A stretch of DNA of 64,000 nucleotides from an uncultured bacterium (GTDB lineage Bacteria; Patescibacteriota; Minisyncoccia; Phycocordibacterales; CAIZLB01). The stretch's first letter is position 1. Each line of letters begins with the position of its first letter. The position numbers and the translations under genes are program-made. Below the pieces are notes generated by a model that was not told where the DNA came from, made no database searches, and saw only the letters and a program-made list of their open reading frames with translations. Positions 13,212 through 64,000 of the stretch are shown piece after piece. The stretch spans positions 3,559-67,558 of the forward strand of contig CAIZVZ010000019.1 of the NCBI GenBank assembly GCA_903936565.1, written 5' to 3'.

Positions 13212-14351
13212 ATGAAAAAAACAATTAAAATAAGCCTAGGAATTACAATCGTTGTAATTGCGATAATACTAATAATAATGGGCCTAAATAGTAATTCAAA
13301 TCAAAGTAATGTTATTAAAATAGGTTATATTGGTCCAATTACAGGCCCTTCTGCGGTCTTGGGAATGGATGCAATAAAGGCAATTGAAATAGCTGTTGAC
13401 GAAACAAATGCTAAGGGTGGAATAAATGGTAAGCAGGTACAACTAATTGCTGAAGATGATAAATATTTATCAAAAGACACAGTAAACGCTTATAATAAGC
13501 TTGTAAATGTAGATAAGGTAAAAATAATTCTAATTTCAACTTACGGTGGAGTGTTTGCTGTAGCTGATCAAGCTAAAAATGATGGGGTAGTGGTGATTGA
13601 CCCGCTTGATTGTAATAAGGATCTGGCAAATGCAGACAAAAACATCTTTTGTTTGGCAACAGAGACTGAGTCCATTGGTACTTCATTGGCTCAAAATTTA
13701 GCAAGCACTGGTGGTAAAAAGGCTGCAATCTTGTATTCAACAAAAGATAATTTTATGTCAATTGTTGCGAATTCATTTGATTATGAGTTCTCAGGGAACG
13801 GAGGAATTACCATGAAGGAAGGTTTTAACTATGGTGATACTGACTATAGAGCTCAGCTTCTAAAAATAAAAGAGTATAATCCAGATGCTTTGATTATATT
13901 AGGTCACGATGAACAGGGTTTCATCATGAAACAAGCAAGAGAACTTGGTGTTAAGGCTAAATTCATGACCACAGGTACTATTACAAGTCCTGTTGCACAA
14001 CAAAATGCAAACGGTGCAGCTGAAGGAACGCTACTTGCTTATTGGGACTCAGCAAAAAATGGTTCAAATGTTAAAAACTTTGAAGTTAAGTTTGCTGCAA
14101 AAGTTGGAAGACCAGCAATACTCCCATTAACCACTCATCCGGCATATGATACAGTCAAGATATTAACTGATATCGTACTTCCTAACATATATGGAAATGT
14201 AACTGGAAATAAAGTAGCATCTGAACTACTAAAGGTTTCGAATTATCAAGGTGTCACGGGAAATATAACGATTGATAAGGATGGTGGGGCAAGAATTAAG
14301 GAATCAGTGTTTAAACTAGTTAACGGTAGTCCAGTTAGTCTGCAAAAATAG
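13212..14351 (+). CDS. LivJ-like (branched-chain amino acid type) solute-binding protein, N-terminal TM anchor (SBP1)
   Basis: IKIGYIGPITGP, AVDETNAKGGINGK, DYRAQLLKIK, AYD, GVTGNITID. Confidence 0.88.
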   Translation: MKKTIKISLGITIVVIAIILIIMGLNSNSNQSNVIKIGYIGPITGPSAVLGMDAIKAIEIAVDETNAKGGINGKQVQLIAEDDKYLSKDTVNAYNKLVNVDKVKIILISTYGGVFAVADQAKNDGVVVIDPLDCNKDLANADKNIFCLATETESIGTSLAQNLASTGGKKAAILYSTKDNFMSIVANSFDYEFSGNGGITMKEGFNYGDTDYRAQLLKIKEYNPDALIILGHDEQGFIMKQARELGVKAKFMTTGTITSPVAQQNANGAAEGTLLAYWDSAKNGSNVKNFEVKFAAKVGRPAILPLTTHPAYDTVKILTDIVLPNIYGNVTGNKVASELLKVSNYQGVTGNITIDKDGGARIKESVFKLVNGSPVSLQK

Positions 14352-14440: not shown

Positions 14441-15187
14441 TTAGTTGCCCCAAAGTGTATTAAATAGGTTTAAATAGCCCTTAACTAAATTTTGGTCCTT
14501 GATCTTTATAGCTGTTACAGGCTGTTCTCTGTTTGAATAGATAATATTAAGAACCACTCCAGCTTCTGGATAAACATGGATGCCCGCTGGGTTTTCCGTG
14601 CTTGTGTCTAAGTATTTGATTTTATACGATCCTTCTCTCTCGGTCTCCTTTTGAAAGGATTCCTTTTGATTCTTATAGCCAATCATTTTTATTGTGATTT
14701 TGGCACCGTCTATGGCGTTGTGGTATTTTTTCCAAATGGGTCGCATTGTTTCTTCCATAAAGTCTTCACCGCCAGAACCAATTATGTATTTTGTTCCACC
14801 GTTTGGTAATTGTTTTATTAATGAAGTTAGGAGTGCTAAATATTCATCATTGCCTTTATGTATTGTGATTTCTTGGGTCTCGGCAGACATCTTGTGTTTA
14901 ATATTTTTGGAAACGCTTTCTGCAATCTTTTGCTTTTCTTCAAATTCTTCCACTAAAATATCTGGTGAGACAATAGAGAATGTCTTTTTGCCTTTTGTTT
15001 CAAATTCAGAAATCAATTTTCTGGCCACAAGGTGCTCTAATGATGTATAAACAAGACTCCTGTGTAGGCCGGTATTTGTAATTAGGGGATTTGATGTGGC
15101 TGTTTTTAGCTCAGCCAGTGCTAAATAGACCGTTGCATCGTTTTCAGAAAACCCAAGTTTCATTAAATCGTTAGTGGTTTTATTCAT
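14441..15187 (-). CDS. TrmB-family winged-helix transcriptional regulator (R1)
   Basis: LGFSENDATVYLAL...TGLHRSLVYTSLEHLVARKLI; C-terminal effector-type domain ending FNTLW. Confidence 0.85.
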   Translation of the reverse strand: MNKTTNDLMKLGFSENDATVYLALAELKTATSNPLITNTGLHRSLVYTSLEHLVARKLISEFETKGKKTFSIVSPDILVEEFEEKQKIAESVSKNIKHKMSAETQEITIHKGNDEYLALLTSLIKQLPNGGTKYIIGSGGEDFMEETMRPIWKKYHNAIDGAKITIKMIGYKNQKESFQKETEREGSYKIKYLDTSTENPAGIHVYPEAGVVLNIIYSNREQPVTAIKIKDQNLVKGYLNLFNTLWGN

Positions 15188-17357: not shown

Positions 17358-17375
17358 TTTAGTTTTGTTATTTTA

Positions 17376-17957: not shown

Positions 17958-18146
17958 AGTGTATTATATATAATAGTGGGGATAGCTGAGTTTAGGGAGA
18001 TTGGATTTTGTCCAGAATTTCTTTAGATTTTCTTATGAGAAACTAAAGAATTTATGGAAATTTTCTCAATCTTTACGCGGGAACAGGGTCTCTGTATAAC
18101 TCACAGAATACCCCTAATTTTAATAAAAATCAAACCAACATAAAAT

Positions 18147-18947: not shown

Positions 18948-18948
18948 C

Positions 18949-19716
18949 CTATTTTTTATCCGCTGATCCCCACAATACTTCAAAATTTTTCCAGAAACTC
19001 TCAACTACGACTTTGTTCTTGATTGAAAATACAATAGGCTTTTTACCCCAAACTGAAAGCATAACTTCACTTAGAGAGAGATTGATTGCTATTGGTCCAA
19101 AATAGTTTTTTGGAAGGAATCCAAGTTTGTATTTTTTTATATCCTTTCTTTCGTGAATGGTGTCAATTATTGGGTTTAGTTTTTTCTCAAGTAGCATTCT
19201 GACATCGCCAGTCTTTGGGAAGGTCCACTCATCTACTTTTACAAAGAAATTAGAAATCTTCTGTAGTGAACTTTTGTCAATTGCATTTGATCCAAAACCA
19301 ATAATTCCAAGGGGTTCATTTTTCTTTACGTTTTCAAGGTGTTGGCTAAATGCAAGTTGAAATCCATGCACACCTTCAAAAACGTTTATTTCATTCCTAT
19401 CCTGTTTATTCTGGGGAAGTGAGGCTATACTTTTGGATAATTTATTTAATTCCTCGAGGTTTTGTTTATATTCGTCGATTAATTGATTTGGCAATTCTGC
19501 ACGATAATACTTCACATTGTTTTTTACTAAATAAGAAACAAGACCTTTTTCTGTTAACAATCTCAGGGATTCATAAACACGTGAGCTTGAAATACCTGTC
19601 TCTTTAATTATCGCTCCGGTCTTGGATGTGCCAATAAGATACAGCGCTTCATAAACCTTTATATCATTATTGTGTAAACCAAATTGCTTTAATATTTCTA
19701 TTTTCATAATTACCAT
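18949..19716 (-). CDS. TrmB-family regulator (R2)
   Basis: FGLHNNDIKVYEAL...ISSSRVYESLRLLTEKGLV; ends NFEVLW. Confidence 0.85.
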   Translation of the reverse strand: MVIMKIEILKQFGLHNNDIKVYEALYLIGTSKTGAIIKETGISSSRVYESLRLLTEKGLVSYLVKNNVKYYRAELPNQLIDEYKQNLEELNKLSKSIASLPQNKQDRNEINVFEGVHGFQLAFSQHLENVKKNEPLGIIGFGSNAIDKSSLQKISNFFVKVDEWTFPKTGDVRMLLEKKLNPIIDTIHERKDIKKYKLGFLPKNYFGPIAINLSLSEVMLSVWGKKPIVFSIKNKVVVESFWKNFEVLWGSADKK

Positions 19717-19807
19717 ATTTAGTTATTACTCTCCTGTAAAGGAGGGTTTGATTTGTAATATATCAACAATATACACTACTCAAGATTATTAAACAAATAA
19801 AGAGAAA

Positions 19808-20944
19808 ATGAATAAATATTTAAAAGTTGTTCTTATATTATGTGTTATGGGGATTGGTGCCACTTTGCTATTTAGGAGTGTGTCTAACAATAATGAAAAC
19901 ATAAAGATTGGTGGTATCTCAGCTCTTTCTGGAGTTGGTGCTTCTGTGGGTGAGGATGAAAGAAAGGGCGCGGTTCTGGCGGTGGAAGAAGTAAATAAAA
20001 GAGGGGGAATAAACGGAAGAACAATCGAACTTATTTCTGAGGATCTTTCTATTGATAAAATTAATAAAGCCGTTTCTGTTGCGGAAAAACTTATTAATAT
20101 TGATAAGGTTGTAGCGATAGTGGGAGCACAGTGGGACGAGACTACTTTTCCAATATTACCCATCGCCGAGAAAGCTGAGGTTTCAATGGTAGGTGCTGAC
20201 AATTCTGATCAGCTTGAGAAAGATAAAGATTATCCATATTTTTTCTCTACTTGGTATGATAATCGAGTTGGGGTGAGAGAGATACTTCGCTATTCTGGTA
20301 CCCACAATATTAAAAGAATCTCAATAATTAAATTTCTCGCCGCTGGTTTCTGGGAATTTACAGCAAGAACCATGACAGATGAAGCTTCGAAGTATGATGT
20401 TGAGGTGGTAAATGAGTCCGATTTGGGGAATCCAACAGCTCTTGATTTTAGAACTGAACTACTTAAGGTAAATCAATACAATCCAGATGCAATTTTTATT
20501 GTCACAAATGACTTTAATCAATGTTCGTTTTTGAAGCAAAAAGCTGAGTTGGGAATAAATACTATTGCGTTAGGAACAGAGTCATCCGCTGATGGAACTT
20601 CAATTACAAATTGTCCTGACTTAATGGAAGACAGAGTTTGGAGTGCTCCGAAGGGCGGAAATAAATATTACGAATTTGAATCTAGATTCACGGCGCGTTT
20701 CGGTCAGAAACCAAATTCACCTTCTGCTGCAACTGCGTATGATGCCGTTATGGTCATTGCCAGTGCATTGCAAAAGACAAACGGTAGGGGTGGCGAAGAG
20801 TTACAAAACGCAATACAAGCAACAAATATCGATGGTGTTTCTGTAGATAAGATTGTATTTAATCAAAAAGGCTTTTTAGTTACTCCGGAGGATACTTTCT
20901 CCATGAAGGGATTTAAAGATGGAGAAGCGGTGGATTTGAAGTAG
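19808..20944 (+). CDS. LivJ-like solute-binding protein, TM-anchored (SBP2)
   Basis: IKIGGISALSG, AVEEVNKRGGINGR, DFRTELLK, AYDAV. Confidence 0.88.
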   Translation: MNKYLKVVLILCVMGIGATLLFRSVSNNNENIKIGGISALSGVGASVGEDERKGAVLAVEEVNKRGGINGRTIELISEDLSIDKINKAVSVAEKLINIDKVVAIVGAQWDETTFPILPIAEKAEVSMVGADNSDQLEKDKDYPYFFSTWYDNRVGVREILRYSGTHNIKRISIIKFLAAGFWEFTARTMTDEASKYDVEVVNESDLGNPTALDFRTELLKVNQYNPDAIFIVTNDFNQCSFLKQKAELGINTIALGTESSADGTSITNCPDLMEDRVWSAPKGGNKYYEFESRFTARFGQKPNSPSAATAYDAVMVIASALQKTNGRGGEELQNAIQATNIDGVSVDKIVFNQKGFLVTPEDTFSMKGFKDGEAVDLK

Positions 20945-20960
20945 ATTTGTAGTAAATAAT

Positions 20961-21005
20961 AAAAAACAAAACCAAGCCTATTTATAAAGCTCGGTTTTGT
21001 TTTTT
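20961..21005. terminator. Bidirectional terminator between SBP2 and SBP3
   Basis: aaaaaacaaaacc...ggttttgtttttt inverted repeat. Confidence 0.65.
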
Positions 21006-21022
21006 GAGAAATTGTATCAAGA

Positions 21023-22165
21023 CTATTTTACATTCACCCACTCACCACCTTTAATTGTCATAAGTAGAGTATCTCTTTGTGAAACCCCCTTCTCATTGAA
21101 GCTCAGTTTTCCAGATATTCCGTCGTGATTAATCTTTGTGAAGTTTGTTGTAAAACAAGTATTGTCTATTTTACCATCCGCATTTAGACACTTCTCAATA
21201 ACGCCAGACATTGCAATTACATCGTCATATGCGAATGTAACGTCCGCTGCCAACTTTACTCCAAATCTTTTTTCGTATCTATCTTTGAACTCCTTTTGTT
21301 TTTCAGTTAATGATCCATAGACGAATCCAAACCAACCTGTCACCGTCTTGTTTTTTTCGTAGAGATTTCTAATCTCTACGGTATCACCACTTGGCAAAAA
21401 TGGAGCGAGCATTTGATATGTTTGTATGTTAATCATGCCCAATTGATCCATTTGTCTCATTAAAATATCTGATTTTGTATGAGAGCATGTGAAAATAGCA
21501 TCTGGATTCACATTCTTAATCTTAGTTAGGGTTGTTTTGAAATCATTGTCCTCTGGGGTAAACATATATTCAGCAACAAGATTCTTTCCTTCTTTGTTAA
21601 ATATTTCCTTCGCTGTACCCAAGTATTCATTACAAGCTGTGTTGTTTTGACCAAAATATGCAATTCTAACGTGATTATCTGTGATCATTTGATTTGCCAT
21701 AGTCTTACCCATGTCTTTTGTATCAAAGTAATCTCTAAAGAATAAATCATTGTTTTCTGCGATTTCTGCAAAGGCTGAAGCATAGACCATTGGTATCTCT
21801 GCATTACCTGCTGTATCCTTTACAGCCTGCGTAATGTGAGTAAAGGCAGAGAATAGAATATCTACTTTGTCCACATTAATCAGTTTATTAACTCCTGATA
21901 CCGCTGGGTTAGCCAACCCCTGATTATCTTCAGTCTTTAGCTCCAGCATCCTACCTTTGATTCCTCCCGCTTTGTTTATATCTTCAACAGCCAATAGAAG
22001 TCCATTTCTTTCGGACTCTCCAATAAATGAAAGATTACCAGAAAGCGCCAAGGTAGCACCTATTTTAATAGTATCTGCTGACTTTTTCTGTTCATTAACG
22101 CTGATTACTGAAATAATGATTACTAATACGATTGCTATAATGGTCCAAATTGTTTTGTTTTTCAT
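21023..22165 (-). CDS. LivJ-like solute-binding protein, TM-anchored (SBP3)
   Basis: IKIGATLALSG, AVEDINKAGGIKGR, DFKTTLTKIK, AYDD, GISGKLSFN. Confidence 0.88.
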   Translation of the reverse strand: MKNKTIWTIIAIVLVIIISVISVNEQKKSADTIKIGATLALSGNLSFIGESERNGLLLAVEDINKAGGIKGRMLELKTEDNQGLANPAVSGVNKLINVDKVDILFSAFTHITQAVKDTAGNAEIPMVYASAFAEIAENNDLFFRDYFDTKDMGKTMANQMITDNHVRIAYFGQNNTACNEYLGTAKEIFNKEGKNLVAEYMFTPEDNDFKTTLTKIKNVNPDAIFTCSHTKSDILMRQMDQLGMINIQTYQMLAPFLPSGDTVEIRNLYEKNKTVTGWFGFVYGSLTEKQKEFKDRYEKRFGVKLAADVTFAYDDVIAMSGVIEKCLNADGKIDNTCFTTNFTKINHDGISGKLSFNEKGVSQRDTLLMTIKGGEWVNVK

Positions 22166-22291
22166 GATTTGTATATTAATTTACAAACACCATTATATGT
22201 TGCATTGTATATCTTGTCATAAAAATCGATTAAGTATTTTATATATTCCCAAATAACTAATCTATAAGCCATATTAAAGACTATTTACTGT

Positions 22292-22308
22292 TGTCGGTAT
22301 TTCTGACA
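22292..22308. promoter_or_regulatory. Candidate operator TGTC-N9-GACA
   Basis: tgtc-ggtatttct-gaca, 11 bp upstream of the R3 start. Confidence 0.55.
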
Positions 22309-22319
22309 CAATATGGAAT

Positions 22320-23090
22320 ATGGATGAAATATTACAAAAACTTGAGGAGTTTGGCATCAGTGAAAAGGCGGCAAAGATATATATTAGTCTGCTGCGTGAG
22401 CAAGATGTACCTGTATATAAGGTTGCTACGACCAGCAAAATACCTAGAACTACGGTTTATGCGATATTGGAGGAGTTGGAATCACAAGGTTTAGTGTCCA
22501 GTTGGAAGAAAAACAACGTAAAATACTACTCGGCAGAGAATCCTGAGAATCTTAAGAGAATATTGAAAAATAAGGAGATGGCACTTAATGAGATCTTTGG
22601 GGACTTAAGTGGAATGTTTAAGTTGGAGCGAGATAATCCTAAAACTAGGGTTTTGATTGGTGTGGAGGGAGTTAAAATAGCTTTTGAACACATGTTGGAG
22701 GTTATGGTCCAAGAGAGATTGAAGTTGGTTTATGCCTTTTTTGAATCTCAATTGACTGAATTATTCCCTAAATTCTTTTTTGAGTGGAGAGCGAGGAAAA
22801 ACAAGAAGACTGGAGCTACAACATTTCTTCTCGTTCCAAGTGGACTAGGTTTACACGAACACTACAAGAGCGATCCTTATAGAATAACCCGTGAGATGCC
22901 AAAAAAGTGGCCAGGTGGATCGTTTGCGATAATCGGAACCAATATATTTTTCTTCTCATTTAAGGAAAATGAGGTCTATTCTATAATTATTGAATCAAAA
23001 ATTATCTCCACCATGTTTGGGGGATTGTTTATGTATATTTGGAATACGCTGGATGATGATGTGGGGGTTAGAAATAAGGCTGAGTTTTAA
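22320..23090 (+). CDS. TrmB-family regulator (R3)
   Basis: FGISEKAAKIYISLL...IPRTTVYAILEELESQGLV...YYSAENP. Confidence 0.87.
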   Translation: MDEILQKLEEFGISEKAAKIYISLLREQDVPVYKVATTSKIPRTTVYAILEELESQGLVSSWKKNNVKYYSAENPENLKRILKNKEMALNEIFGDLSGMFKLERDNPKTRVLIGVEGVKIAFEHMLEVMVQERLKLVYAFFESQLTELFPKFFFEWRARKNKKTGATTFLLVPSGLGLHEHYKSDPYRITREMPKKWPGGSFAIIGTNIFFFSFKENEVYSIIIESKIISTMFGGLFMYIWNTLDDDVGVRNKAEF

Positions 23091-23135
23091 GTGTTCTTCT
23101 GACAATAATAATTATTAAGGTTGTGAAACGGTGTT

Positions 23136-23900
23136 TTATTTCCCCATATTCCACAAAACATCAAAAAACCTCCTATAACTCTCAACCATCTTCTGACTTT
23201 TAATTGAAAAGCGAATATGTGGTGTTCCAAATAGGTTAAACACCACTTCATTCGGAAAAATACTCATATTTACCTCATTTTCAAATCTACCATTCAATAA
23301 TCTTGATTTAAAGTTACTTCTCGGGTCATATTTTTCCTTAATTGCCTCTTCTTGCCCTAGTGACCCGACGTATTTCACGCTAATTTCTTTTTTGTTTCTC
23401 TGGTATTCATACTCCGTAAGAAGGTTTCCCATTGTTTCAGCCCACTGATCGCCAATCCCTCCAATAACAAGAAATTCAGATCCTTTTGGGGCGTCTTGCA
23501 GTGCCTTAAACTCAGATGCGATAAAAGACTCTGTTCCTTTAATAACATCAAAGTTCTGTTCATCTACATAATCAATCAAATTACTCAGGTTTTGCGATAG
23601 ATTTTCTGCAATAACCTTCTGCTTTTCAGCTTCAAGTACCAGAAGAGAGGGGTTTTGTGCTTCAAATTGCTTCCGACCGTTTTTAAGCGTGAAACGAACC
23701 ATGTTCTTTTCCTCTAGTTCTTTAAGTGAATTATAGACAAACTGGTTGTGTAACCCTGTCTCTTTAACTATCTTAGATGCTCCAACTCCACCGAGTCTGA
23801 GTAGGGAGTAGTAGACTCGTGCGGTTTTATCGCTAAAACCAAGCTTTTGGAAGTCATTTAAGAGTTTAGTGGGTATATTTTTATCAATATTGTTTGACAT
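23136..23900 (-). CDS. TrmB-family regulator (R4)
   Basis: LGFSDKTARVYYSLL...TGLHNQFVYNSLKEL; ends FFDVLW. Confidence 0.85.
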   Translation of the reverse strand: MSNNIDKNIPTKLLNDFQKLGFSDKTARVYYSLLRLGGVGASKIVKETGLHNQFVYNSLKELEEKNMVRFTLKNGRKQFEAQNPSLLVLEAEKQKVIAENLSQNLSNLIDYVDEQNFDVIKGTESFIASEFKALQDAPKGSEFLVIGGIGDQWAETMGNLLTEYEYQRNKKEISVKYVGSLGQEEAIKEKYDPRSNFKSRLLNGRFENEVNMSIFPNEVVFNLFGTPHIRFSIKSQKMVESYRRFFDVLWNMGK

Positions 23901-24017
23901 AGTTGTAATTTAAGCCTTTATATAAATACTATTTCATATATATAACTTTGTCAATAAATCATTGTAATAATTGACAAAACTGGAATAATATATTGTATTA
24001 AAAGATAAACAATATAT

Positions 24018-25145
24018 ATGAAAAACAAAAAGAACATATTTATAGCTATAGTTGGGATTATCGTAATAGTCTCACTCGTTTGGATGGGATCTAGGGATAA
24101 TTCCGTAGTAAGTGAAAATTCAGGTAATTTTAAAGCCAACAATCAAGAAATTGTTATTGGAGCAGTACTATCAGAAACTGGAATGGCTTCAATTGATGGG
24201 AATAACATAAAGAGTGGAATTGAATTTGCAAGAGAAGAATTAGCAAAGAAGGGGATTAATGTTAAGGTTGTTTATGAAGACGATCAAACTAATCCAAAGA
24301 ATACAGTTACTGCGATTCAAAAGTTAGTTGATATTAACCACCCCCAAGCTTTGATTGGTCCTACATGGAGTTTCTTGGCTGAAGCTGCTGGTCCTGTGGT
24401 TGAGAGAAATAAGATTGTTTCAATGAGTCCAGCAAATACTAGTGAGTTTGTTTCCGTTAATTCAGGATATTTCTTCTTTGGTGCACCAAAGAATGAGGCT
24501 AAGGAGAAATATGCAACAGATTGGATTAAGGAAAGGGGATTGAAGAGAATTGCAATTGTTGTTGAGAAAAGTGGTTGGTCAGATAGTCACATTGTACCGT
24601 TTGAGAATGCGATAAAGAATGCTGGTGCAGAGCTTGTGTTCACTGAAAAATTCACCTATGCACAAAACTCAGTTGATGGTGGATCTGTAAAGGATATTAT
24701 TATGAAAGCAAAGAACGCTGGAGTTGATGGAGTGCTTTATACAGGTTTTGATCAATCAACTGCTGTTCTAATTTCAAAGAAGCAAGAATTGAAAGCAGAT
24801 TTTCAAATGCTCATGGCAACAGAAATTCCAGTGGGACTTCAAAAGAAGGGGGTTGTGAATATAAAGGATTCTGACAATATGTTTATCATTAGCCCTAAGG
24901 ATTCAGAATCTTTCAGTGATGCATACAAGGCAAGATACAATGAGTATCCAGGTGCGTATGCGGACAGAGGATATGATAGTTTGATGCTACTCGTTTCCGC
25001 TTTACAGAATAAGGGCGATATGGATCTTAAGGATTATCTAAAATCTGATTCAAGTATAAAGTATAATGGTTATGCTGGAGTGTATGACTTTGATCAGAAG
25101 GGAGATATTAAAGATAGTACTTGGAAGGTGGTGAAGATAAAATAG
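24018..25145 (+). CDS. LivJ-like solute-binding protein, TM-anchored (SBP4)
   Basis: IVIGAVLSETG, VVYEDDQTNP, GYDSL, GYAGVYDFD..GD. Confidence 0.87.
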   Translation: MKNKKNIFIAIVGIIVIVSLVWMGSRDNSVVSENSGNFKANNQEIVIGAVLSETGMASIDGNNIKSGIEFAREELAKKGINVKVVYEDDQTNPKNTVTAIQKLVDINHPQALIGPTWSFLAEAAGPVVERNKIVSMSPANTSEFVSVNSGYFFFGAPKNEAKEKYATDWIKERGLKRIAIVVEKSGWSDSHIVPFENAIKNAGAELVFTEKFTYAQNSVDGGSVKDIIMKAKNAGVDGVLYTGFDQSTAVLISKKQELKADFQMLMATEIPVGLQKKGVVNIKDSDNMFIISPKDSESFSDAYKARYNEYPGAYADRGYDSLMLLVSALQNKGDMDLKDYLKSDSSIKYNGYAGVYDFDQKGDIKDSTWKVVKIK

Positions 25146-25171
25146 AAAAATAGTAAACAAAAGTTTGTTAT

Positions 25172-25199
25172 ACAAAACCTATAGAAATATAGGTTTTGT
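25172..25199. terminator. Bidirectional terminator
   Basis: acaaaacctata-gaaa-tataggttttgt perfect stem. Confidence 0.75.
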
Positions 25200-25208
25200 T
25201 TTTACATT

Positions 25209-25976
25209 TTATTTATCAAACTGCTTCGCACCAAGCCAGGATAATGCGTGAATTTTCTTAAACGCATCAGCAATTTCTTTACTTTCAATTATAATACCAA
25301 GCTTTTCTTTCCAAGACGCTATCATTATCTTGTTATTATAGATATTAATTTCAGGTGTGAAGTTGAACATTTCATTGGGAACCAGAAGGGTCTCTCGTAA
25401 TTCATTAGAGTCCTCCTTCTTTCTGAGTTTTCCCAACTCTGTATCTGGTACAATGGCGTGTGCCCATATCTTTTTGGCAGCTCTTCTTTTGTAATACTTT
25501 GGAAAATAGTTTGGCATTCCATCGTGCATTTCATCAACATTGGCAAATCCTAGTATTCCATCATCACTTGTGAGTGTGTCTTCATATACTTTCATCAAAC
25601 CATCTTCTCCTTCATAAAACTTCACAGAAGGTTTACTTCCTTTTGATTGAATTGCCAATAAGCGGGGGACAAGATCTTGAGCCTTATTCAGATTCTCTTC
25701 AAGTATGTTTTGCTGTCTTTTGACGTAATTGGCGATGGAGATTGGCGCTTCTGCCATAAATTCTTGCCTACTTCCTTTACCGAGCGCATTAACAATACCT
25801 TTATTGGCAAGAGAATTTAAAATGTCATATCCTGTTGTTCTGTTAATGCCTGCTTTCTTGGAAATATCAGCTACTTTTGCGTTACCTAATTCAAGTAGGG
25901 ATACGTAAACCTTGGCTTCTTTGTCGGATAGTCCTAATTTTTCTAATATAGTCTCAAGATTTGTGTACTGGCTCAT
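25209..25976 (-). CDS. TrmB-family regulator (R5)
   Basis: LGLSDKEAKVYVSLLELG...GINRTTGYDIL; PSVKFYEG; EINIYNNKI. Confidence 0.88.
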   Translation of the reverse strand: MSQYTNLETILEKLGLSDKEAKVYVSLLELGNAKVADISKKAGINRTTGYDILNSLANKGIVNALGKGSRQEFMAEAPISIANYVKRQQNILEENLNKAQDLVPRLLAIQSKGSKPSVKFYEGEDGLMKVYEDTLTSDDGILGFANVDEMHDGMPNYFPKYYKRRAAKKIWAHAIVPDTELGKLRKKEDSNELRETLLVPNEMFNFTPEINIYNNKIMIASWKEKLGIIIESKEIADAFKKIHALSWLGAKQFDK

Positions 25977-25985
25977 ATTACCCTT

Positions 25986-26123
25986 ATTATAATAAAACTA
26001 GTACTTGTGTCAATCGTGTTCCACAGTAATGTATTTATTATGTGTTTACATATAATGCTTGTATTGCAAATAACTGTAAACTTGGCGCAATGTTTTGACA
26101 GTATTTGATCACAATATTATAAT
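25986..26123. promoter_or_regulatory. Divergent sigma70 promoters of R5 and SBP5
   Basis: + strand TTGACA(26095)-17-TATAAT(26118); - strand TTGACA(26013)-16-TATAAT(25991). Confidence 0.75.
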
Positions 26124-26152
26124 TTGTCCAATTATAAATAATAATCAAATAT

Positions 26153-27259
26153 ATGAAAAAGAAAGTCATTTGGACAGTAGTTGTAGGTATGGTAGTTATA
26201 GCGGTTATATTTGCTGTAGGTAACAATGACAAAAAAGACACGAATACGATTAAAATTGGTAGTGTTAGCGCCCTCACGGGAGACGGTGCTGTTTATGGGG
26301 AGGTTTCTAAGAGGGGGCTCGATATTGCCGTTGAGGAAATAAACGCAGTTGGGGGTGTAAATGGTAAGAAAATAGAGATGGTTTATGAGGATGGAAAGTG
26401 TGATGGCAAGTCAGCTCTAAATGGTGCGCAAAAACTACACGGCCAAGGAATTGATATTCTTTTGGGTGTGACTTGTAGTGGAGAGGTACTCTCTATTGCT
26501 CCGTTTGCCGAACAAAACAAGATGGTGTTAATCAGTCCATCTGGATCAAATCCTGATATAACAAAGGCGGGGGACTATATATTTAGAAACAACCCATCAG
26601 ACGCGAGCAGGTCTGTCGTTTTTGTCCAAAAGATTCTGGACTTGGGATATAAAAATGTGGCGATAATATCTGAACAAACTGATTTTTCACAAGGCCTTAG
26701 AAAATCAATAATTGAAGAAGGAAACAAAAAGGGGCTGAAGATTGTTTTTGATGAGGTGTTTGATAAAGACTCTAAGGATTTTAGGACAACTTTGTCTAAG
26801 TTAAAAAACACGCAGGCAGATTCATTGATACTTCTACCACAGACTGATGTAACAATGGTCCCTCTGTACTCTCAAGCTTATCAGCTGGGAATCAGATTAC
26901 CAACTTTTGTTGCTGGGGAACAGATGACTGCAAAAACAGAACAATCTTTGGGAAGTATAGTGAAGGGTGTTTACGTTGTAGAAGCTCCTGGTTTGGATTC
27001 TAATAACGAGATTGCAAATAAATTGCTGGCTAAGTATAAGGCTAAATATGGTCAGCTTACTTTGGATTTTTATATGGCAGCATCATATGACAATGCGTAT
27101 ATAATCAAGAGGGCAATTGAAATTGCTGGGACTGAAGACCCTACTAGGGTAAAAGAAGCCCTTTATAAAATCAAAGATTTCAAGGGTGCGATAGGAACTT
27201 ATGGTTTTGATTCTAATGGAGATATTCAGGGGGTGGGGTTTGTGATGAATCAAAGGTAG
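26153..27259 (+). CDS. LivJ-like solute-binding protein, TM-anchored (SBP5)
   Basis: IKIGSVSALTG, EDGKCD...GVTCSG (LivJ-type Cys pair), YIFRNNPSD, SYDN. Confidence 0.9.
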   Translation: MKKKVIWTVVVGMVVIAVIFAVGNNDKKDTNTIKIGSVSALTGDGAVYGEVSKRGLDIAVEEINAVGGVNGKKIEMVYEDGKCDGKSALNGAQKLHGQGIDILLGVTCSGEVLSIAPFAEQNKMVLISPSGSNPDITKAGDYIFRNNPSDASRSVVFVQKILDLGYKNVAIISEQTDFSQGLRKSIIEEGNKKGLKIVFDEVFDKDSKDFRTTLSKLKNTQADSLILLPQTDVTMVPLYSQAYQLGIRLPTFVAGEQMTAKTEQSLGSIVKGVYVVEAPGLDSNNEIANKLLAKYKAKYGQLTLDFYMAASYDNAYIIKRAIEIAGTEDPTRVKEALYKIKDFKGAIGTYGFDSNGDIQGVGFVMNQR

Positions 27260-27311
27260 GATTCTGGTGGGAAGAATATTTGGGAATAAAACGTCTAGTA
27301 AAATAGGCGTT

Positions 27312-28073
27312 TTATTCTTGATTAGCAACCTTTTCTGCAACATTATTCCAAATCATGTTAAAGAATGATAAAAAGATACTACTAAATGGCTCTGATTCTA
27401 TGATTAGTGAATAAATCTTTTGATTATCCATAAAAAATAGGGCGGTCTTGTTGCCGTAGATATACATTGAACTTTTAATATCTTGCGGACCTTTGACCTC
27501 TCTAGTCTCTCTGAATGAGTTACTTTCATAGCCTTCATCAATGTCCCCTGGCACAAATTCAGGTCTGATTATTCTAATATGTATATTTGACTGCTCTCTT
27601 GTTTTAATCCATTCCCGGCTGACTTTTGGAAAATACTTAATAAAATCTGGTCTAAGGTATGCACTTATGGTTTTTACTTTTGTAAGCTTGGAATGATCTA
27701 AAATATCTTGAAGTACTGCTTTAGATCCTTCTTTTCCAGTGTATAACTTTGCGGAGGGAACAGCTCTGCCATCTTCGGAAAGTAGTCTGAGCTCTGGAAC
27801 CAGCTCCTTCATTTTCTCCAGCTTTTCTTCTTGAATTTTTAATAATCGGTTAGGACTCTCTGCTCCATAGTATTTAACTCCATTTTTCCTCCACATGCTT
27901 ACCAAACCCATTCTCTGCATTGATAGTAGGGTGTCATATATGGTTGTTTTAGCAATTCCAGTATCTTGAACGATCTGGGTAATTGAACAGTCTTTGAGCT
28001 TAAGGAGACTTAAATAGACCTGAGATTCCTTATCGGAAAAGCCAATTTGTGATAGTTGTTGAATATAATTCAT
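27312..28073 (-). CDS. TrmB-family regulator (R6)
   Basis: IGFSDKESQVYLSLL...GIAKTTIYDTL; MYIYGNKTA; FFNMIW. Confidence 0.87.
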   Translation of the reverse strand: MNYIQQLSQIGFSDKESQVYLSLLKLKDCSITQIVQDTGIAKTTIYDTLLSMQRMGLVSMWRKNGVKYYGAESPNRLLKIQEEKLEKMKELVPELRLLSEDGRAVPSAKLYTGKEGSKAVLQDILDHSKLTKVKTISAYLRPDFIKYFPKVSREWIKTREQSNIHIRIIRPEFVPGDIDEGYESNSFRETREVKGPQDIKSSMYIYGNKTALFFMDNQKIYSLIIESEPFSSIFLSFFNMIWNNVAEKVANQE

Positions 28074-28076
28074 AAA

Positions 28077-28095
28077 TGGTCGGAAAAAGCGACCA
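28077..28095. promoter_or_regulatory. Candidate operator TGGTC-N9-GACCA
   Basis: tggtc-ggaaaaagc-gacca immediately upstream of the R6 start. Confidence 0.55.
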
Positions 28096-28221
28096 ATATA
28101 TTATACATTATGAACCTTATAATACAAGTCAATTTCTGTTTCATATAAAATAGCGATTATAAAATGCGATTTAATTGACAAAGTCTAATATGATGTTGCT
28201 GTAATAATTTAAATCAAAAAT

Positions 28222-29358
28222 ATGAAAAAATACAAAATTATATGGATATCTATAGTCGTAGTACTTGCGATGGCGGTTGTGATTGCGGTTAGTGGTGGTG
28301 TGGATAGTTCCAATAATTCAGATACTATCAAGATTGGCTTTATTGGTGCTCTTTCGGGGGCTGACCCTTCATACGGAGAGGCCATGAAAGGTGGGGTAGA
28401 AATTGCTGTCGAGGAGATAAATTCTCAAGGTGGAATAGGTGGAAAAAAAGTTGAGGTAATATATGAGGATGGAAAATGTATTGATTCAAAAAGTGCCATA
28501 TCAGCTTTTCAGAAGCTGAATGATATAGATCGTGTTAAAGCCATAATTGGCGGTGGTTGTTCAAATGAAGTGGCTTCTATCACCAAAATGGTTGATAGTA
28601 ACGAGGTATTCTTGATATCCTCTGGCGCATCTAGTCCCGACATTTCTGGTTCAAGTAAATACATCTTTAGAAATTCTATAAACGATACAGAATCTAGTAA
28701 ACAATTGGCGATTCAAATCATTAAAGATGGTTACAACGATATTGCGATTATTACCGATAATTCAGATTATGCCTCAGGGTTTAGAAAATCATTTATAAAT
28801 GAGTTTGATAAGGTTGGTGGTGTCGTGAGTGTTGATACGATTGTTCAAGCCAATCAATCTGATTATAGATCTGATATTGCTAAACTAAAAGCCGTTAATC
28901 CAAAGGTAATATTTATTAATCCGGCTGTTCCAAAAACTGCGGGTATTATAATAAAACAAATAAAGGAAGCTGGTTTGAATTCTAAAATATATTTAACTTT
29001 CATGGCTACACCTGCATTTTTCAATATTGCAGGGGATAGTGCTGATGGAGCAACTGTGATTGATTTACCAAAGGTTACTGGTGATCTTTCTCGTAATATT
29101 CTTACAAAGTTTGAAACTATATACGGTCACAAAACTGTTTATGAATATAATACAGTTGCCGCCTATGATGCGGTGATGGTAATAAAAGAGGCGATAGTAA
29201 AGGTTGGATATGATTCTAACAAGATATCTAATTATTTATCTAAACATAATTTCTCTGGTGGGCTGGGTAATTTTAGTTTCAATGATCAGGGTGATGTTTC
29301 TGGAATGAAATACACACTTCAAATTATTAAGGGGCATGAGTTGGTGGAGATAAAATAG
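28222..29358 (+). CDS. LivJ-like solute-binding protein, TM-anchored (SBP6)
   Basis: IKIGFIGALSG, EDGKC...GGGCS, DYRSDIAKLK, AYDAV. Confidence 0.9.
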   Translation: MKKYKIIWISIVVVLAMAVVIAVSGGVDSSNNSDTIKIGFIGALSGADPSYGEAMKGGVEIAVEEINSQGGIGGKKVEVIYEDGKCIDSKSAISAFQKLNDIDRVKAIIGGGCSNEVASITKMVDSNEVFLISSGASSPDISGSSKYIFRNSINDTESSKQLAIQIIKDGYNDIAIITDNSDYASGFRKSFINEFDKVGGVVSVDTIVQANQSDYRSDIAKLKAVNPKVIFINPAVPKTAGIIIKQIKEAGLNSKIYLTFMATPAFFNIAGDSADGATVIDLPKVTGDLSRNILTKFETIYGHKTVYEYNTVAAYDAVMVIKEAIVKVGYDSNKISNYLSKHNFSGGLGNFSFNDQGDVSGMKYTLQIIKGHELVEIK

Positions 29359-29365
29359 CTTATAA

Positions 29366-29401
29366 ATAAAGGGCCCCGCAGATATCTGCGGGGCCCTTTA
29401 T
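29366..29401. terminator. Perfect 36-bp GC-rich palindrome, probable bidirectional terminator
   Basis: ataaagggccccgcagat|atctgcggggccctttat between convergent SBP6 and SBP7. Confidence 0.75.
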
Positions 29402-29416
29402 CGTAGGTTCTCGTAA

Positions 29417-30499
29417 TTATTTTATTAACATCATCACTCCATTCTCAATCTTTGCTGGAAAAAGCGGAAAATTTATTTCTCCTTTTTCATTAACATTTAA
29501 TTTCCCCATCAATCCATCAAAGTCTTTTACGTTCTTAAGATTATTGAATACTTCTTTTGAATTATTTGCGCCCTTGAGCGATTGACTATATATCCCTGTA
29601 AGATCATAACCTATTGCTGAATATGCACTTGGTTTGGTTTTATATTTATTTTCGTAAGCAGCAGAGAAGTCCATCACTTTCTGATTACCAGATAAATAAT
29701 ATTCTGGAGTTGTAAGATAGACTCCTTCGGCTAAGTTACCTGCTTTTTCTTGAACAGTTTGTGATGATAATATCCAGTTTGTCATTTTGACTTTATCGAA
29801 ATTCATTTCTTTCATCTGCTTAAGAATGCTAACAAGTTGATTATCTAATCCTATGATGTACACACCTTCAGCTTCAGAGTTTTTAATTTTAGTAATTTGA
29901 GTTTTGAAATCTTGATCCTTTTTATCAAACTCCTCAATATCTACAATAGAAGCGCCTGATTTTTCTGCAACATCTTTAAACACTTCTCCATAAGTTTTTC
30001 CATACTCGTCATTACTTACAAGAAAGGAAATCTTCTTAAGATTAAGTGATTTGGTGGCGAAGTTTGCCATGATTGGAGCTTCTTGCTCAGCTGAAGTAAA
30101 ATATCTTATAGACAAATCTCCTTGTGCTTTTCTTGCAGAAACTAATGTTTGCATAGAGAAGATTCCATCCTTTTCTGCTATCGGAACGACAGCATTAGCA
30201 ACTGAGCTTAAGGAAAGTATAACGGAACCAAGGTTGTTCTGTGATTTTAACTTCTGATATGCTGAAATTGCTGAATTGGTATTTGATTGGCTGTCTTCAT
30301 AAACTAAATTGATCTTTGTATCTTGATTAGCTAAATCCATTCCTTTCTTCATTTCCTCACCAAAAAACTGAGCGGGGCCAGTAAGGGGAAGTACGGCACC
30401 TATTACAAGAGGTTTGCTGTTACTTGAATTAGTGAATAATATTGTGCCTATTGTGATAACAAGAATAACTGCGACTATTGATATAATTTTGTTTTTCAT
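29417..30499 (-). CDS. LivJ-like solute-binding protein, TM-anchored (SBP7)
   Basis: IGAVLPLTGP, DFKTQITKIK, GYD, GLMGKL; start placed at ATG 30499 (MKNKII). Confidence 0.88.
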   Translation of the reverse strand: MKNKIISIVAVILVITIGTILFTNSSNSKPLVIGAVLPLTGPAQFFGEEMKKGMDLANQDTKINLVYEDSQSNTNSAISAYQKLKSQNNLGSVILSLSSVANAVVPIAEKDGIFSMQTLVSARKAQGDLSIRYFTSAEQEAPIMANFATKSLNLKKISFLVSNDEYGKTYGEVFKDVAEKSGASIVDIEEFDKKDQDFKTQITKIKNSEAEGVYIIGLDNQLVSILKQMKEMNFDKVKMTNWILSSQTVQEKAGNLAEGVYLTTPEYYLSGNQKVMDFSAAYENKYKTKPSAYSAIGYDLTGIYSQSLKGANNSKEVFNNLKNVKDFDGLMGKLNVNEKGEINFPLFPAKIENGVMMLIK

Positions 30500-30604
30500 A
30501 TTTGTGTCAATATAATAAAACGATATGATAGCTCTGTCAAAGATGTATGACATAATCTAGGAATATACCGCTATAAACAAAGCCAGAACGGAAAATATGA
30601 AATG

Positions 30605-30645
30605 TTGTCACGGATTTTGACAAAATACATACCAAGAGATATTAT
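30605..30645 (+). promoter_or_regulatory. R7 promoter with overlapping TTGTC-N9-GACAA operator
   Basis: ttgtc-acggatttt-gacaa (30605-30623) overlaps TTGACA(30617)-17-TATTAT(30640). Confidence 0.6.
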
Positions 30646-30655
30646 TGTAATTATA

Positions 30656-31402
30656 ATGGATACACTAGAATACAAAAATAAGCTGATTTCTCTTGGTTTA
30701 ACAGATAGGCAGGCTGTTGTTTATATTAAAGCTTTGGAATTCGGATCATTTTCAGTTGCGAGTTTGGCCCATGCTACGGGTATTAAAAGGCCAACTTGCT
30801 ATCTTGTTTTGGATGAATTATCTCAAAAGGGCTTAGTTTCTGTTATTCCTAATGCTAAGAAGACCAAATATAAAGCGGAGTCACCGGAGATTCTGATCAA
30901 ACAGATTGAAACGCAGATGGTTACCGCTAAAAGAGTTTCAAATGATTTGCTCAAGCTCTATAATCCGAAGGCAGAAGGACCTACTTTGCTGTATTTCTCT
31001 GGACAGAAGGCAATCAGAGGTATATTTGATGATGTCTTGAAGGTAAAAAGTAAGGAGTATTTGTATATTGGATCAGGAAGAGATGTTATTGATATGGTTG
31101 GAAAGGAATATATTGACCATTGGCTAACGGAAAGAGTTGAAAAGGAGATAATAGCAAGAAGTATTAGAATGAAGAGTACAGAGGTTATGGAGGATATATA
31201 TCAAACAAATATTATGCGTGATTTGCGTCTTGCTCCTGATTTTATCCATATTGCTGAGACTATATTTATTTATGACAACAAAGTCTCCATCATATCTACT
31301 TCTAATGAGAACTTTGGTTTTGTTGTAGAAAACAAAGAGTTTGCAAATACCATGCGTGGCTTGTTTGAGGCACTTTGGGCAGTTTCAGAAAATAGATCAT
31401 AA
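30656..31402 (+). CDS. TrmB-family regulator (R7)
   Basis: LGLTDRQAVVYIKAL...GIKRPTCYLVLDELSQKGLV; FIYDNKVSII; LFEALW; start ATG 30656. Confidence 0.88.
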   Translation: MDTLEYKNKLISLGLTDRQAVVYIKALEFGSFSVASLAHATGIKRPTCYLVLDELSQKGLVSVIPNAKKTKYKAESPEILIKQIETQMVTAKRVSNDLLKLYNPKAEGPTLLYFSGQKAIRGIFDDVLKVKSKEYLYIGSGRDVIDMVGKEYIDHWLTERVEKEIIARSIRMKSTEVMEDIYQTNIMRDLRLAPDFIHIAETIFIYDNKVSIISTSNENFGFVVENKEFANTMRGLFEALWAVSENRS

Positions 31403-31464
31403 CAAAAACACCTTAGATTTAATTTCTAAGGTGTTTTCGTGATTATATATTGTTTGAGATTATA

Positions 31465-62409: not shown

Positions 62410-63159
62410 TTACACCTCTCCTGCCGATTGCCAAATTATTTCAAACTGTTCTTCTTGTAATTGTATTATTCCAGGATTTTCTATGACGATAGTAAGAATA
62501 GGCGAGACCATTTGAGTAATAATGACTTTATCTTTTAATATAACTAGGTTACTAATAAGATCCACATCCTTTGGTAAATATCTAATGTCCCAATTGATTC
62601 TCTTTCCATATTCTTTGTATTTCTCGGCCTCAGGTGTTCTTTGGAGTAGGGTTCGGAGAGACAGGTGTAGGTGACTTCTTTTCTCCACCCAATCCTCAAA
62701 GAAATCTTTATCAATTTTCATAAACTTTTCAATATCAGATATAATCAGGTATTTATCTCCATATCTCAAATCCTTTAACATATCAGTGTAGACCTTTTTA
62801 AAACCGGATACCCCTTCGTAATATTTAATAAAATTGAGACCAGTGTGTATTTGGTATTTACTTGATAGCTCGGGGATAATTTTTGATAGGTTATCTTTCT
62901 TTAGCTCGTAAGTCTTCATTAGATTCTCTGGATTGGAGGCAACAAAGAGCTTTTTTAGACCATTAATTTCAATGCTGATTAGCCCCTTAATTTTAAGTGC
63001 CTCTATTACGGAGTAGGCGGTGGTCCTTATGACCCCCGCTTCTTTAGCGATATTTATGGCTGTTGCGGGCCCGAGGCTTAAATTAGCAAGGTATATTTTA
63101 GCTTCATTTTCTGTCAGCCCAATATCTTTGATTATCTCTACGGTTCTGTTGGTTAGCAT
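62410..63159 (-). CDS. TrmB-family regulator (R8)
   Basis: IGLTENEAKIYLANLSLG...GVIRTTAYSVI; IKYYEG; FEIIW. Confidence 0.88.
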   Translation of the reverse strand: MLTNRTVEIIKDIGLTENEAKIYLANLSLGPATAINIAKEAGVIRTTAYSVIEALKIKGLISIEINGLKKLFVASNPENLMKTYELKKDNLSKIIPELSSKYQIHTGLNFIKYYEGVSGFKKVYTDMLKDLRYGDKYLIISDIEKFMKIDKDFFEDWVEKRSHLHLSLRTLLQRTPEAEKYKEYGKRINWDIRYLPKDVDLISNLVILKDKVIITQMVSPILTIVIENPGIIQLQEEQFEIIWQSAGEV

Positions 63160-63256
63160 GTTTGTTTAATGGTTATATTGATTGTATTAAAATGTCGATT
63201 ACTTCGTCGTCTAAATATACTATATGTTGCTTATATAATATAGCATTTATACATAC

Positions 63257-63297
63257 ATGTCGACAAAACAGACATAAGTAATCTTTAGAACTATAAT
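63257..63297 (+). promoter_or_regulatory. SBP8 promoter with overlapping ATGTC-N9-GACAT operator
   Basis: atgtc-gacaaaaca-gacat (63257-63275) overlaps CAGACA(63269)-17-TATAAT(63292). Confidence 0.6.
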
Positions 63298-63328: not shown

Positions 63329-64000
63329 ATGAAAAATAATTATAAGAAGATAGTATTTATGTCAGTTGTATTTATAGCCTTAATATTGGCCGTAGTTTTG
63401 GGTACATCGGGTCAATTTGGCAATAAGGATTTAACAATTACTGCAATGTTCCCTATGACCGGCGGACTGTCATCTTATGGGGACTCTGCATCTAGGGCTT
63501 CAATCCTGGCTGTGGAAGAAATTAATGCAAGCGGCGGAATTAACGGCAAGACCTTGAAGTTAAATCTTCAAGATCATAAATGTGACACCAAGGAGGCTGT
63601 TGCAATATACAAGCAGTTCAAGTCTAAAACTAATGTGTTCACATCTGCGGCTTGTAGTGGTACAGCGCTTGCGATAGCTCCGATGCTTGAAAATGACGGA
63701 TCTGTCCTATTGGGTTCAACACTTTCTACGCCTAAGATAAGTGGTGTATCTAAAAACCTATTTAGAAATTGGTCCTCAGATGCAAAGGAAGCAGAATTGT
63801 TTGCAGGTCTACTGAAGGGTATAGATTATAAAAAGATTGGAATAATCTATGAAGAAACAGACTATGCGAAGGGGCTAAAGGATTCTTTAGAAAAGAACAT
63901 TTTAGCCAGCTCTACAGCGACACTACCTGGTCCAAAGCAAGTTTATTCTGAGGGGTTTGTTAGTGGATCAATGGATGTCCGAAGTCAATTGCTTAAACTT
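63329..64000 (+). CDS. LivJ-like solute-binding protein, TM-anchored (SBP8, runs off window)
   Basis: Manual translation: MKNNYKKIVFMSVVFIALILAVVLG...MFPMTGG...AVEEINASGGINGK...DHKCD...SAACSG. Confidence 0.88.
   Translation, partial: MKNNYKKIVFMSVVFIALILAVVLGTSGQFGNKDLTITAMFPMTGGLSSYGDSASRASILAVEEINASGGINGKTLKLNLQDHKCDTKEAVAIYKQFKSKTNVFTSAACSGTALAIAPMLENDGSVLLGSTLSTPKISGVSKNLFRNWSSDAKEAELFAGLLKGIDYKKIGIIYEETDYAKGLKDSLEKNILASSTATLPGPKQVYSEGFVSGSMDVRSQLLKL

Follow-up and report, generated by a model that had tools for sequence, protein, structure and literature searches.

A receptor library with paired TrmBL2-type regulators that probably serves a single LivHMGF importer in an uncultured Patescibacterium

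How Patescibacteria get the building blocks that they cannot make is an open question, and a locus in one uncultured member of the phylum bears on it. In a 64,000-nucleotide stretch of contig CAIZVZ010000019.1 (assembly GCA_903936565.1; "the window"), 12 consecutive open reading frames (ORFs) at 18949-31402 alternate between regulator genes (R) and genes for LivJ-fold receptors (SBP), numbered 1-8 along the window, and form six head-to-head pairs. What do so many receptors serve, and what do their regulators do? A profile search found no PF02653 permease and no Liv ATPase within the 64-kb window, and an earlier reading of the letters alone (the initial annotation) had called the receptors orphans. 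That description fits the window but was ruled out genome-wide, since the source genome (G000; other G numbers are relatives or other genomes, L numbers are fetched loci) has one intact livH/M/G/F set. We think it probable that the receptor library feeds this single LivHMGF importer and that each head-to-head regulator represses its own promoter and that of its partner, probably until released by the imported solute.

The array and the translocator of its genome

The six head-to-head pairs of the initial annotation were confirmed by the ORFs and by profile searches, which placed PF01978 (TrmB) on six array ORFs (E values 7e-11 to 5e-17; 8/8 regulators in the window as a whole) and PF13458 (Peripla_BP_6) on the other six (5e-36 to 1e-56). 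Array regulators are 253-266 aa long and array receptors 368-380 aa. Bidirectional terminators had been proposed for the tail-to-tail joints; strong hairpins are present at 4/5 of these junctions (z -3.6 to -8.4), the exception being R3-R4, which has none (z +1.1). Two more pairs had been claimed elsewhere in the window. One, R8/SBP8, is indeed a seventh head-to-head pair, located between rplB and rpsS, but SBP1/R1 is tail-to-tail. The array reads as follows.

18949..19716, minus strand: R2, TrmBL2-type regulator with winged helix-turn-helix (wHTH), dimer helix and PLD-like C-terminal domain, 255 aa
19730..19745: predicted R2-SBP2 operator of the TCTCC-N6-GGAG type (which goes with Ser-rich recognition helices), conserved in G004 and distant modules
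19808..20944, plus strand: SBP2, membrane-anchored LivJ-fold receptor, 378 aa, amino-acid pocket residues lost
20961..21005: bidirectional terminator-like hairpin, SBP2/SBP3
21023..22165, minus strand: SBP3, membrane-anchored LivJ-fold receptor, 380 aa
22215..22231: predicted second, weaker operator; its outer half is the SBP3 -35 box
22292..22308: predicted operator GTC-N9-GAC beside the R3 start, identical in G001 and G003
22320..23090, plus strand: R3, TrmBL2-type regulator, 256 aa
23136..23900, minus strand: R4, TrmBL2-type regulator, 254 aa
23948..23983: R4-SBP4 module, conserved back-to-back -35-like boxes without a clear GTC-N9-GAC site
24018..25145, plus strand: SBP4, membrane-anchored LivJ-fold receptor, 375 aa
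25172..25199: terminator-like hairpin, SBP4/R5
25209..25976, minus strand: R5, TrmBL2-type regulator, 255 aa, structure modelled; a perfect sigma70 promoter ends 9 nucleotides (nt) before its start
26006..26025: predicted operator, 20-bp palindrome over the R5 -35 box, conserved in G017 and G021
26153..27259, plus strand: SBP5, membrane-anchored LivJ-fold receptor, 368 aa, LivJ-like Cys-Ser and Ser pocket positions kept
27312..28073, minus strand: R6, TrmBL2-type regulator, 253 aa
28078..28094: predicted operator GGTC-N9-GACC beside the R6 start
28164..28180: predicted second operator; its outer half is the SBP6 -35 box
28222..29358, plus strand: SBP6, membrane-anchored LivJ-fold receptor, 378 aa
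29354..29421: SBP6/SBP7 junction, strong hairpin, z -8.4
29417..30553, minus strand: SBP7, membrane-anchored LivJ-fold receptor, true start probably ORF Met19
30535..30552: predicted operator GTC-N10-GAC over the SBP7 -35 box
30606..30622: predicted operator GTC-N9-GAC over the R7 -35 box
30602..31402, plus strand: R7, TrmBL2-type regulator, true start probably ORF Met19

Public DNA contigs, possibly the source data themselves, span 12974-29392 in a single piece at even depth, so a chimeric assembly is unlikely. Among the sequencing runs listed as containing this DNA there was no RNA run, and two runs with small shares were left out. Recent tandem duplication as the origin of the array was ruled out as well: the paralogs are as diverged as had been said (median identity in G000 of 19% among regulators and 22% among receptors), and just 1/12 array proteins has its nearest paralog inside the array.

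G000 (1,038,417 bases, 21 contigs, 98% complete) contains 31 LivJ-fold receptors above the Pfam cut-off and 24 regulators, so the strict 1:1 ratio claimed for the window holds there but not genome-wide. These genes occupy 53 kb, meaning that 5.1% of the genome would serve one channel. Twenty regulators face a receptor (10 on C1, 3 on C6 and 7 on C19), and 20/20 head-to-head junctions among receptor and regulator genes join a regulator to a receptor; as 5000 label shuffles gave a mean of 10 and a maximum of 17, the pairing exceeds chance. The genome search for livHMGF that the initial annotation had suggested returned a full set on C1.

G000:C1:134753-135628 and 166724-167590: two PF02653 permeases, LivH and LivM
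G000:C1:135670-136395: LivF-like ATPase
G000:C1:146827-147615: LivG-like ATPase with BCA_ABC_TP_C

There are exactly two PF02653 genes in G000, with LivH/UrtB and LivM/UrtC as best matches, and one ATPase of each type, with Walker A/B, signature and His motifs intact. The four genes lie dispersed within a second array (C1:134.7-167.6 kb), among 10 further pairs, and are under strong purifying selection: the ratio of nonsynonymous to synonymous substitution rates (dN/dS) against G000 is 0.01-0.02 for G001, G003 and G004 and 0.05 for G005. The 4/4 translocator subunits fall below the NCBIfam Liv/Urt cut-offs, as do 6/6 array receptors, and the LivH sequence had no match among solved structures. 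No PF00528 permease was found in the 98% complete genome, FecCD-type and ECF importers not being searched for. The second array also contains a KilA-N protein, a NYN protein, several orphans and a 216-aa protein with a weak PEP-CTERM-like C-terminus (L003:10962-11612). An unpaired receptor on C7 (L006:6577-7816) begins 80 nt after a tRNA-Gln gene.

Other genomes show the same association of receptors with permeases, which we read as patterns, not statistics, because kin are not independent. A receptor was matched in 14/41 sampled genomes, and the 27 without one have no permease gene. Nine genomes, all in the window's family, have 5-31 receptors; each has one or two PF02653 permease genes, and seven have both. 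Among 300 other genomes of the phylum, with at most six receptors scored per genome, 15 carry a receptor and 11 of those a permease; all four with three or more receptors have both permeases. Around 80 livH loci, a receptor lies within 10 kb in 74, two or more in 47 and a regulator-receptor pair in 27, with a second livH in none. Their layouts form a gradient, with plain S-H-M-G-F operons at one end, operons filled with tandem receptors in between and operons with cassettes inserted among their genes at the other, and the record titles of the livH relatives name mostly Patescibacteria groups (3/80 are Gammaproteobacteria, several just "bacterium"). The single translocator set, the co-occurrence and the livH arrangements thus favor the shared transporter that had been offered as one option, and co-occurrence and gene order make it very likely that each receptor docks on LivHM.

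Receptors, regulators and predicted operators

The receptor family profile ranks HAAT binding-protein structures first (E 5e-79), and the predicted structure of SBP2 is confident (predicted local distance difference test, pLDDT, 93), with receptor identity to E. coli LivJ at 15-25%. All 31 receptors have a short N-terminal tail and a hydrophobic helix without a lipobox. Their scaffold is conserved and their pocket positions are variable, the pocket motifs being stable within ortholog groups. We take Ser79, Thr102, Tyr202 and Glu226 to be the amino-acid pocket residues of LivJ; at 20% identity the alignment is unreliable at positions 202 and 226. The LivJ-like pocket position holds Cys-Ser in SBP5 and Trp-Asp in SBP2.

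The regulators of G000 are 234-283 aa long as called. A 122-sequence regulator profile matched TrmBL2 (5BOX) over positions 11-250 (E 5e-17) and TrmB over 6-157 only. The R5 model (pLDDT 94) ends after the PLD-like domain, and Foldseek with this model returned TrmBL2 first (5BPD, E 6e-14), then TrmB, then PLD/Nuc folds; a conserved helix Tyr is common to the regulators and TrmBL2. In the excerpts available from PMC4877046 and PMC4158304, TrmB and TrmBL1 bear an extra sugar-binding domain (~340 aa in all) that TrmBL2 lacks, TrmB comes off DNA with inducers, and TrmBL2 is described as a chromatin protein and repressor, single and highly conserved, that binds coding and intergenic DNA. Since the regulators have the TrmBL2 architecture without the sugar-binding domain, a ligand response is not inherited by homology, and the TrmB-like response supposed in the initial annotation was not established. 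Orthologs preserve their C-terminal and DNA-binding domains equally well (86% vs 85%), yet C-terminal domains of paralogs are only 15% alike, a pattern that may lend indirect support to an effector site. A cluster search with this domain gave unnamed clusters (0.92-0.93) and sub-threshold TrmB/FilR1 leads.

Array-type regulators elsewhere face other single genes, among them a sodium:solute symporter, an NMT1 binding protein, a class V aminotransferase and, in three genomes, inositol monophosphatases. The symporter case is in G000 itself (C6:79571-81723, L004:3572-5724) and has an operator-like palindrome at C6:80285. In Azospirillum and Cupriavidus, full-length homologs are paired head-to-head with operons for ABC uptake and for an acyl-CoA ligase, and the intergenic region of the Cupriavidus homolog has two GTC-N10-GAC sites. 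The genome G012 has 11 TrmB matches and no receptor; a regulator array in it (L029, C1:42000-55000) faces unrelated genes without Pfam matches, so the cassette design is wider than the receptors. In G280 (L184, C15:27400-30600) four array-type regulators follow one another on a single strand, and the 13 kb fetched there contain no receptor.

Fusions occur as well. A 644-aa protein in G285 (C46, L176:4387-6321, minus strand) joins a full regulator to a UrtA/AmiC-like LivJ-fold domain (PF13433, E 2e-155); with no anchor between its domains, it reads as a predicted one-component sensor. In three genomes of one other family, array-type regulators are joined to membrane helices and to extracellular domains of Cache-like type (weak dCache_1 matches; L178:3211-5493, L179:4010-6193, L180:2753-4888 and 5574-7193); these are apparent transmembrane one-component regulators. 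In G292 an 858-aa fusion (C9, L177:4482-7058, minus strand) combines an arginase-family domain with a UrtA-like binding domain. A scan for long regulator fusions gave 1 match among 7996 scored candidates and missed fusions already seen.

The regulator-receptor intergenic regions (median 153 nt) are conserved at both ends and divergent in the middle. GTC-N9-GAC is present in 26/89 and GTC-N10-GAC in 11/89 of them, compared with 0/48 other divergent regions of the genome, and these sites are spread over 16/39 lineages. An out-of-sample set was made from 64 pairs by removing 18 close to the training set and reducing the rest to 42. There, the two cores were found in 9/42 and 5/42 regions (0.3 expected each), and the trained matrix reached at least 8 bits in 19/39 regions versus 4.5% of shuffles. 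A sigma70 promoter ending 5-9 nt before the regulator start was found in 16/40 regions out of sample (0.6 expected) and, at the same position, in 9/20 modules of G000. The strong palindrome sits over the regulator promoter or start; in several modules the outer half of a weaker palindrome is the receptor -35 box, and a second site of at least 4 bits occurs in 11/37 training and 17/39 out-of-sample regions versus 3% of shuffles. We used only position-specific promoter and terminator tests, since a generic promoter/terminator scan over 13000-32000 was at chance (67 vs 69.7; 16 vs 12.2). Two related palindromes at 45683 and 45738 of the window (45683-45760) had operator-level scores but were rejected as operators, as they lie between the convergent pgk and HIT genes and are probably terminator hairpins. 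Helical phasing of paired operators, hinted at in the training set, was not significant out of sample (Rayleigh p ~0.3, n=7), and DNA looping is therefore not claimed.

Similarity between recognition helices tracks similarity between operators (rho 0.41, p 0.0004, 16 lineages): Ser-rich helices go with TCTCC-N6-GGAG and PKS(S/T) helices with TTCG-N8-CGAA. This match may stem from common ancestry and not from an independent code, and cross-talk could occur between modules whose helices are alike. From these sequence patterns, we consider it likely that the regulators bind the predicted operators and repress.

Inheritance and spread of the cassettes

Are the pairs units of inheritance? The rsmE-tig interval, which holds the array, has six modules in G000, five in G001 and four in G004 (the latter two each across two contigs), three in G003 and one foreign module in G005, and the modules that are shared keep their order and orientation. 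In such comparisons modules are passed on, gained and lost as wholes. The receptor of the module in place of R5-SBP5 in G001 (L014, C45:2177-3100) is split into parts of 262 and 99 aa, through decay or assembly error.

The partners also stay together. Among 89 full-length pairs, 23/23 multi-member receptor clusters keep one regulator cluster, so that the receptor-regulator co-phylogeny proposed for testing holds at this level, though its deep branches agree weakly (below). In a set of 141 modules (153 minus 12 duplicates), regulator and receptor identities rise together down to ~40%, the receptor of the nearest regulator is in the top five for 72 modules (~5 by chance), and no receptor pair at least 55% identical has unrelated regulators. 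Co-inheritance and operator-like palindromes together uphold the view of the initial annotation that each cassette is a self-contained unit of one regulator and one receptor. The search for adjacent pairs in other genomes had the outcome it anticipated: in the eight expanded relatives, for which loci were fetched around matches and do not include every copy, 75/94 regulators face a receptor (one 365-aa protein matching both profiles was relabelled receptor), and coordinates place head-to-head pairs in four phylum-sample genomes from four other families. At the median, dN/dS reaches 0.08-0.11 in receptors, compared with 0.03-0.05 in regulators and 0.06-0.07 in the genes beside them; no gene-wide positive selection on receptors was detected at this gene level, synonymous sites being saturated for G003 and G005.

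Competing readings and known relatives

If the library works as we propose, a regulator dimer or tetramer would cover its own promoter and the -35 box of the receptor. A basal level of receptor would bring solute in through the single LivHMGF, and the incoming solute would free the repressor, so that the matching receptor would gain a larger share of the channel. An auxotroph with one channel would then make only receptors with available cargo, and idle ones would not crowd the channel. Whether the regulator is released by imported ligand bound in its PLD-like C-terminal domain is, on the sequence evidence, about an even call, and the odds are similarly balanced that the substrates are mostly amino acids and related small organics.

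Several observations weigh against this reading. In G000, 11/31 receptors have no head-to-head regulator and 4/24 regulators no receptor. Four of five relatives with 1-3 receptors show no permease, nor do 4/15 phylum-sample genomes, each of which has one receptor. The exact GTC-N9/10-GAC core is found in just 8/20 modules of G000, and one palindrome half-site is often the -35 box itself. The absence of the C-terminal sugar-binding domain of TrmB, with a chromatin protein as closest solved relative, counts here too. Just 12/31 receptors keep the Ser79 and Thr/Ser102 positions of LivJ. Co-phylogeny over 39 lineages is weak at depth (r 0.22, p 0.006 by tree distance; r 0.02, p 0.41 by identity). 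In 8/55 module pairs, representing about five events, regulators at least 70% identical have receptors below 40%; in one such swap (G000:C1:152567/151412 vs G001:C27:4153/2883) the regulators are 73-74% identical and the receptors 19%. Some swaps keep the pocket motifs, but at least one changed them completely, which is not what a strict ligand match would lead one to expect.

The closest competitor retains the shared importer and the operators and makes the ligand a co-repressor, so that a receptor would be shut off when its solute is plentiful inside, balancing the supply of the auxotroph. All of the anatomy would fit equally. Profile searches of the 98% complete G000 found no IlvD, chorismate synthase, ketoacyl synthase or AMP-binding enzyme, an absence that, with that of PF00528 permeases, also favors the main reading. 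No pathway for making branched-chain or aromatic amino acids is apparent in G000, so the imported solutes probably serve directly as building blocks, a class commonly controlled by feedback repression. We nevertheless regard co-repression as unlikely, because uptake and catabolic operons lie opposite the proteobacterial homologs, as is typical of induced genes, and TrmB itself is released by inducers according to the excerpts cited above. Slightly less likely again is that the regulators are ligand-blind, TrmBL2-like oligomer switches whose autoregulation or noise would give each cell its own receptor coat, as in bet-hedging or evasion of phages that use the receptors. Their lack of a sugar-binding domain, the swapping of receptors behind kept regulators, the faster divergence of receptors than of regulators and the fusion of the regulator in other Patescibacteria to extra sensor domains, as if it needed one, would all suit such switches. 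They sit poorly with a C-terminal domain that is held as tightly as the DNA-binding domain within orthologs and differs so widely between paralogs, with receptor dN/dS (~0.08) like that of ordinary genes and with most regulators keeping their receptor subfamily over long times.

Could the receptors instead act apart from transport, as sensors signalling to the regulator or as host adhesins, the other option in the initial annotation? Thirty-one receptors for one channel is extreme, a regulator/LivJ-fold fusion does exist in G285, and in a few genomes a single receptor occurs without any permease. The fusion, however, uses a different, UrtA/AmiC-like subfamily; an intact livH/M/G/F set is present, 9/9 expanded genomes (all those with at least five receptors) have a permease, and the receptor family is the native partner in liv operons. 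Selection on the receptors is purifying, with no gene-wide positive selection. The anchor region is their least conserved part (anchor plus tail 45% conserved vs 81% in the soluble part, and lower in 46/48 ortholog pairs), and the cytoplasmic tail is ~5 residues, which argues against transmembrane signalling; signalling through the anchor was ruled out on these grounds, leaving no conserved signalling element. The option was accordingly set aside as improbable. Least credible, and very improbable in our view, is that the regulators are non-specific chromatin proteins and that duplication or insertion produced the pairing incidentally. Their closest solved structure is that of TrmBL2, a binder of coding and intergenic DNA in the excerpts cited above, but 20/20 regulator-receptor junctions, module-specific palindromes that follow the recognition helix, regulator dN/dS of 0.03-0.05 and 24 paralogs at 19% identity, against a single conserved TrmBL2, all speak against this reading.

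The proposed shared, receptor-fed importer with dedicated repressors has known relatives. Like HAAT importers (E. coli LIV-I/LS), it combines LivJ-fold receptors with two PF02653 permeases and two ATPases. E. coli livJ, livK and livHMGF adjoin each other, and LivJ and LivK share LivHMGF, so that there too more than one receptor gene serves a translocator. It differs from LIV-I/LS in having 31 receptors rather than 2, uncleaved membrane anchors, dispersed translocator genes, ~20% identity to LivJ with pocket residues mostly replaced, and a dedicated regulator for each receptor where E. coli relies on the global Lrp. Group II ECF transporters would be the functional precedent for competition at a shared channel. 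According to PMC7755397, they have many substrate receptors, made on need, that compete for one energising module, and classical importers with several binding proteins are put at "a small number". The likeness is functional only: the receptors here are single-anchor LivJ folds, not integral S-components on EcfAA'T, the translocator is of the PF02653 type and control is by protein regulators.

With Thermococcales TrmBL2 (PDB 5BOX, 5BPD) the regulators share a full-length match and the order wHTH, dimer helix and PLD-like domain in ~255-265 aa; TrmBL2 is one highly conserved chromatin protein and global repressor, whereas here there are 24 divergent paralogs with module-specific palindromes. 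They resemble TrmB, TrmBL1 and Tgr in PF01978 and, as predicted here, in control of ABC uptake, palindromic operators and autoregulation, but have no sugar-binding domain, fall far below the NCBIfam cut-offs, use bacterial sigma70 promoters and serve one gene per regulator. The parts and the multi-receptor principle are thus already known. We did not find in print the scale, the one-regulator-per-receptor cassettes or the operator family; a search of the open-access literature, with subscription journals and supplements outside it, returned no paper on this system.

A bolder version is tentative at best: most small-molecule uptake would pass through one promiscuous ABC channel with mobile plug-in cassettes, the PLD-like domain would be an undescribed effector site and operators would follow a helix-specific code. 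Were it true, the cassettes of an uncultured Patescibacterium would reveal directly what it draws from its host or its environment, and the library would amount to a natural set of 20 or more near-orthogonal sensor-promoter pairs. More generally, ligand screens on the soluble domains of all 31 receptors would reveal what an uncultured organism feeds on with no need for culture. The system tests how far the substrate range of one ABC translocator can stretch and whether TrmBL2-length proteins, so far known as chromatin proteins that lack a sugar-binding domain, can be sequence-specific and ligand-controlled, and the predicted operators make such tests possible in laboratory E. coli.

The window contains these further members of the two families.

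13117-13137: 21-bp palindrome over the SBP1 -35 box, kept in G001
13212..14351, plus strand: SBP1, same receptor family as the array
14441..15187, minus strand: R1, array regulator family, tail-to-tail with SBP1, an arrangement kept in G001
62410..63159, minus strand: R8, regulator of the head-to-head module between rplB and rpsS
63193..63274: R8-SBP8 module, two predicted operators (63193-63209 and 63258-63274)
63329..64000, plus strand: SBP8, cut off by the window edge; its complete gene in the genome (G000:C19:66887-68044) encodes 385 aa

Just 3' of SBP1, at 14359-14375, an R6-type operator-like sequence faces no promoter and is possibly the relic of a lost module, possibly chance. R8-SBP8 is inside the S10 ribosomal protein operon (window 62030-64000), with the same placement in G003 and G004. 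Beyond these families, the window carries a type IV pilus or competence cluster at 37737-43468 (PilB-like ATPase, PilC-like protein and pilins) and ComEC at 49035-50537.

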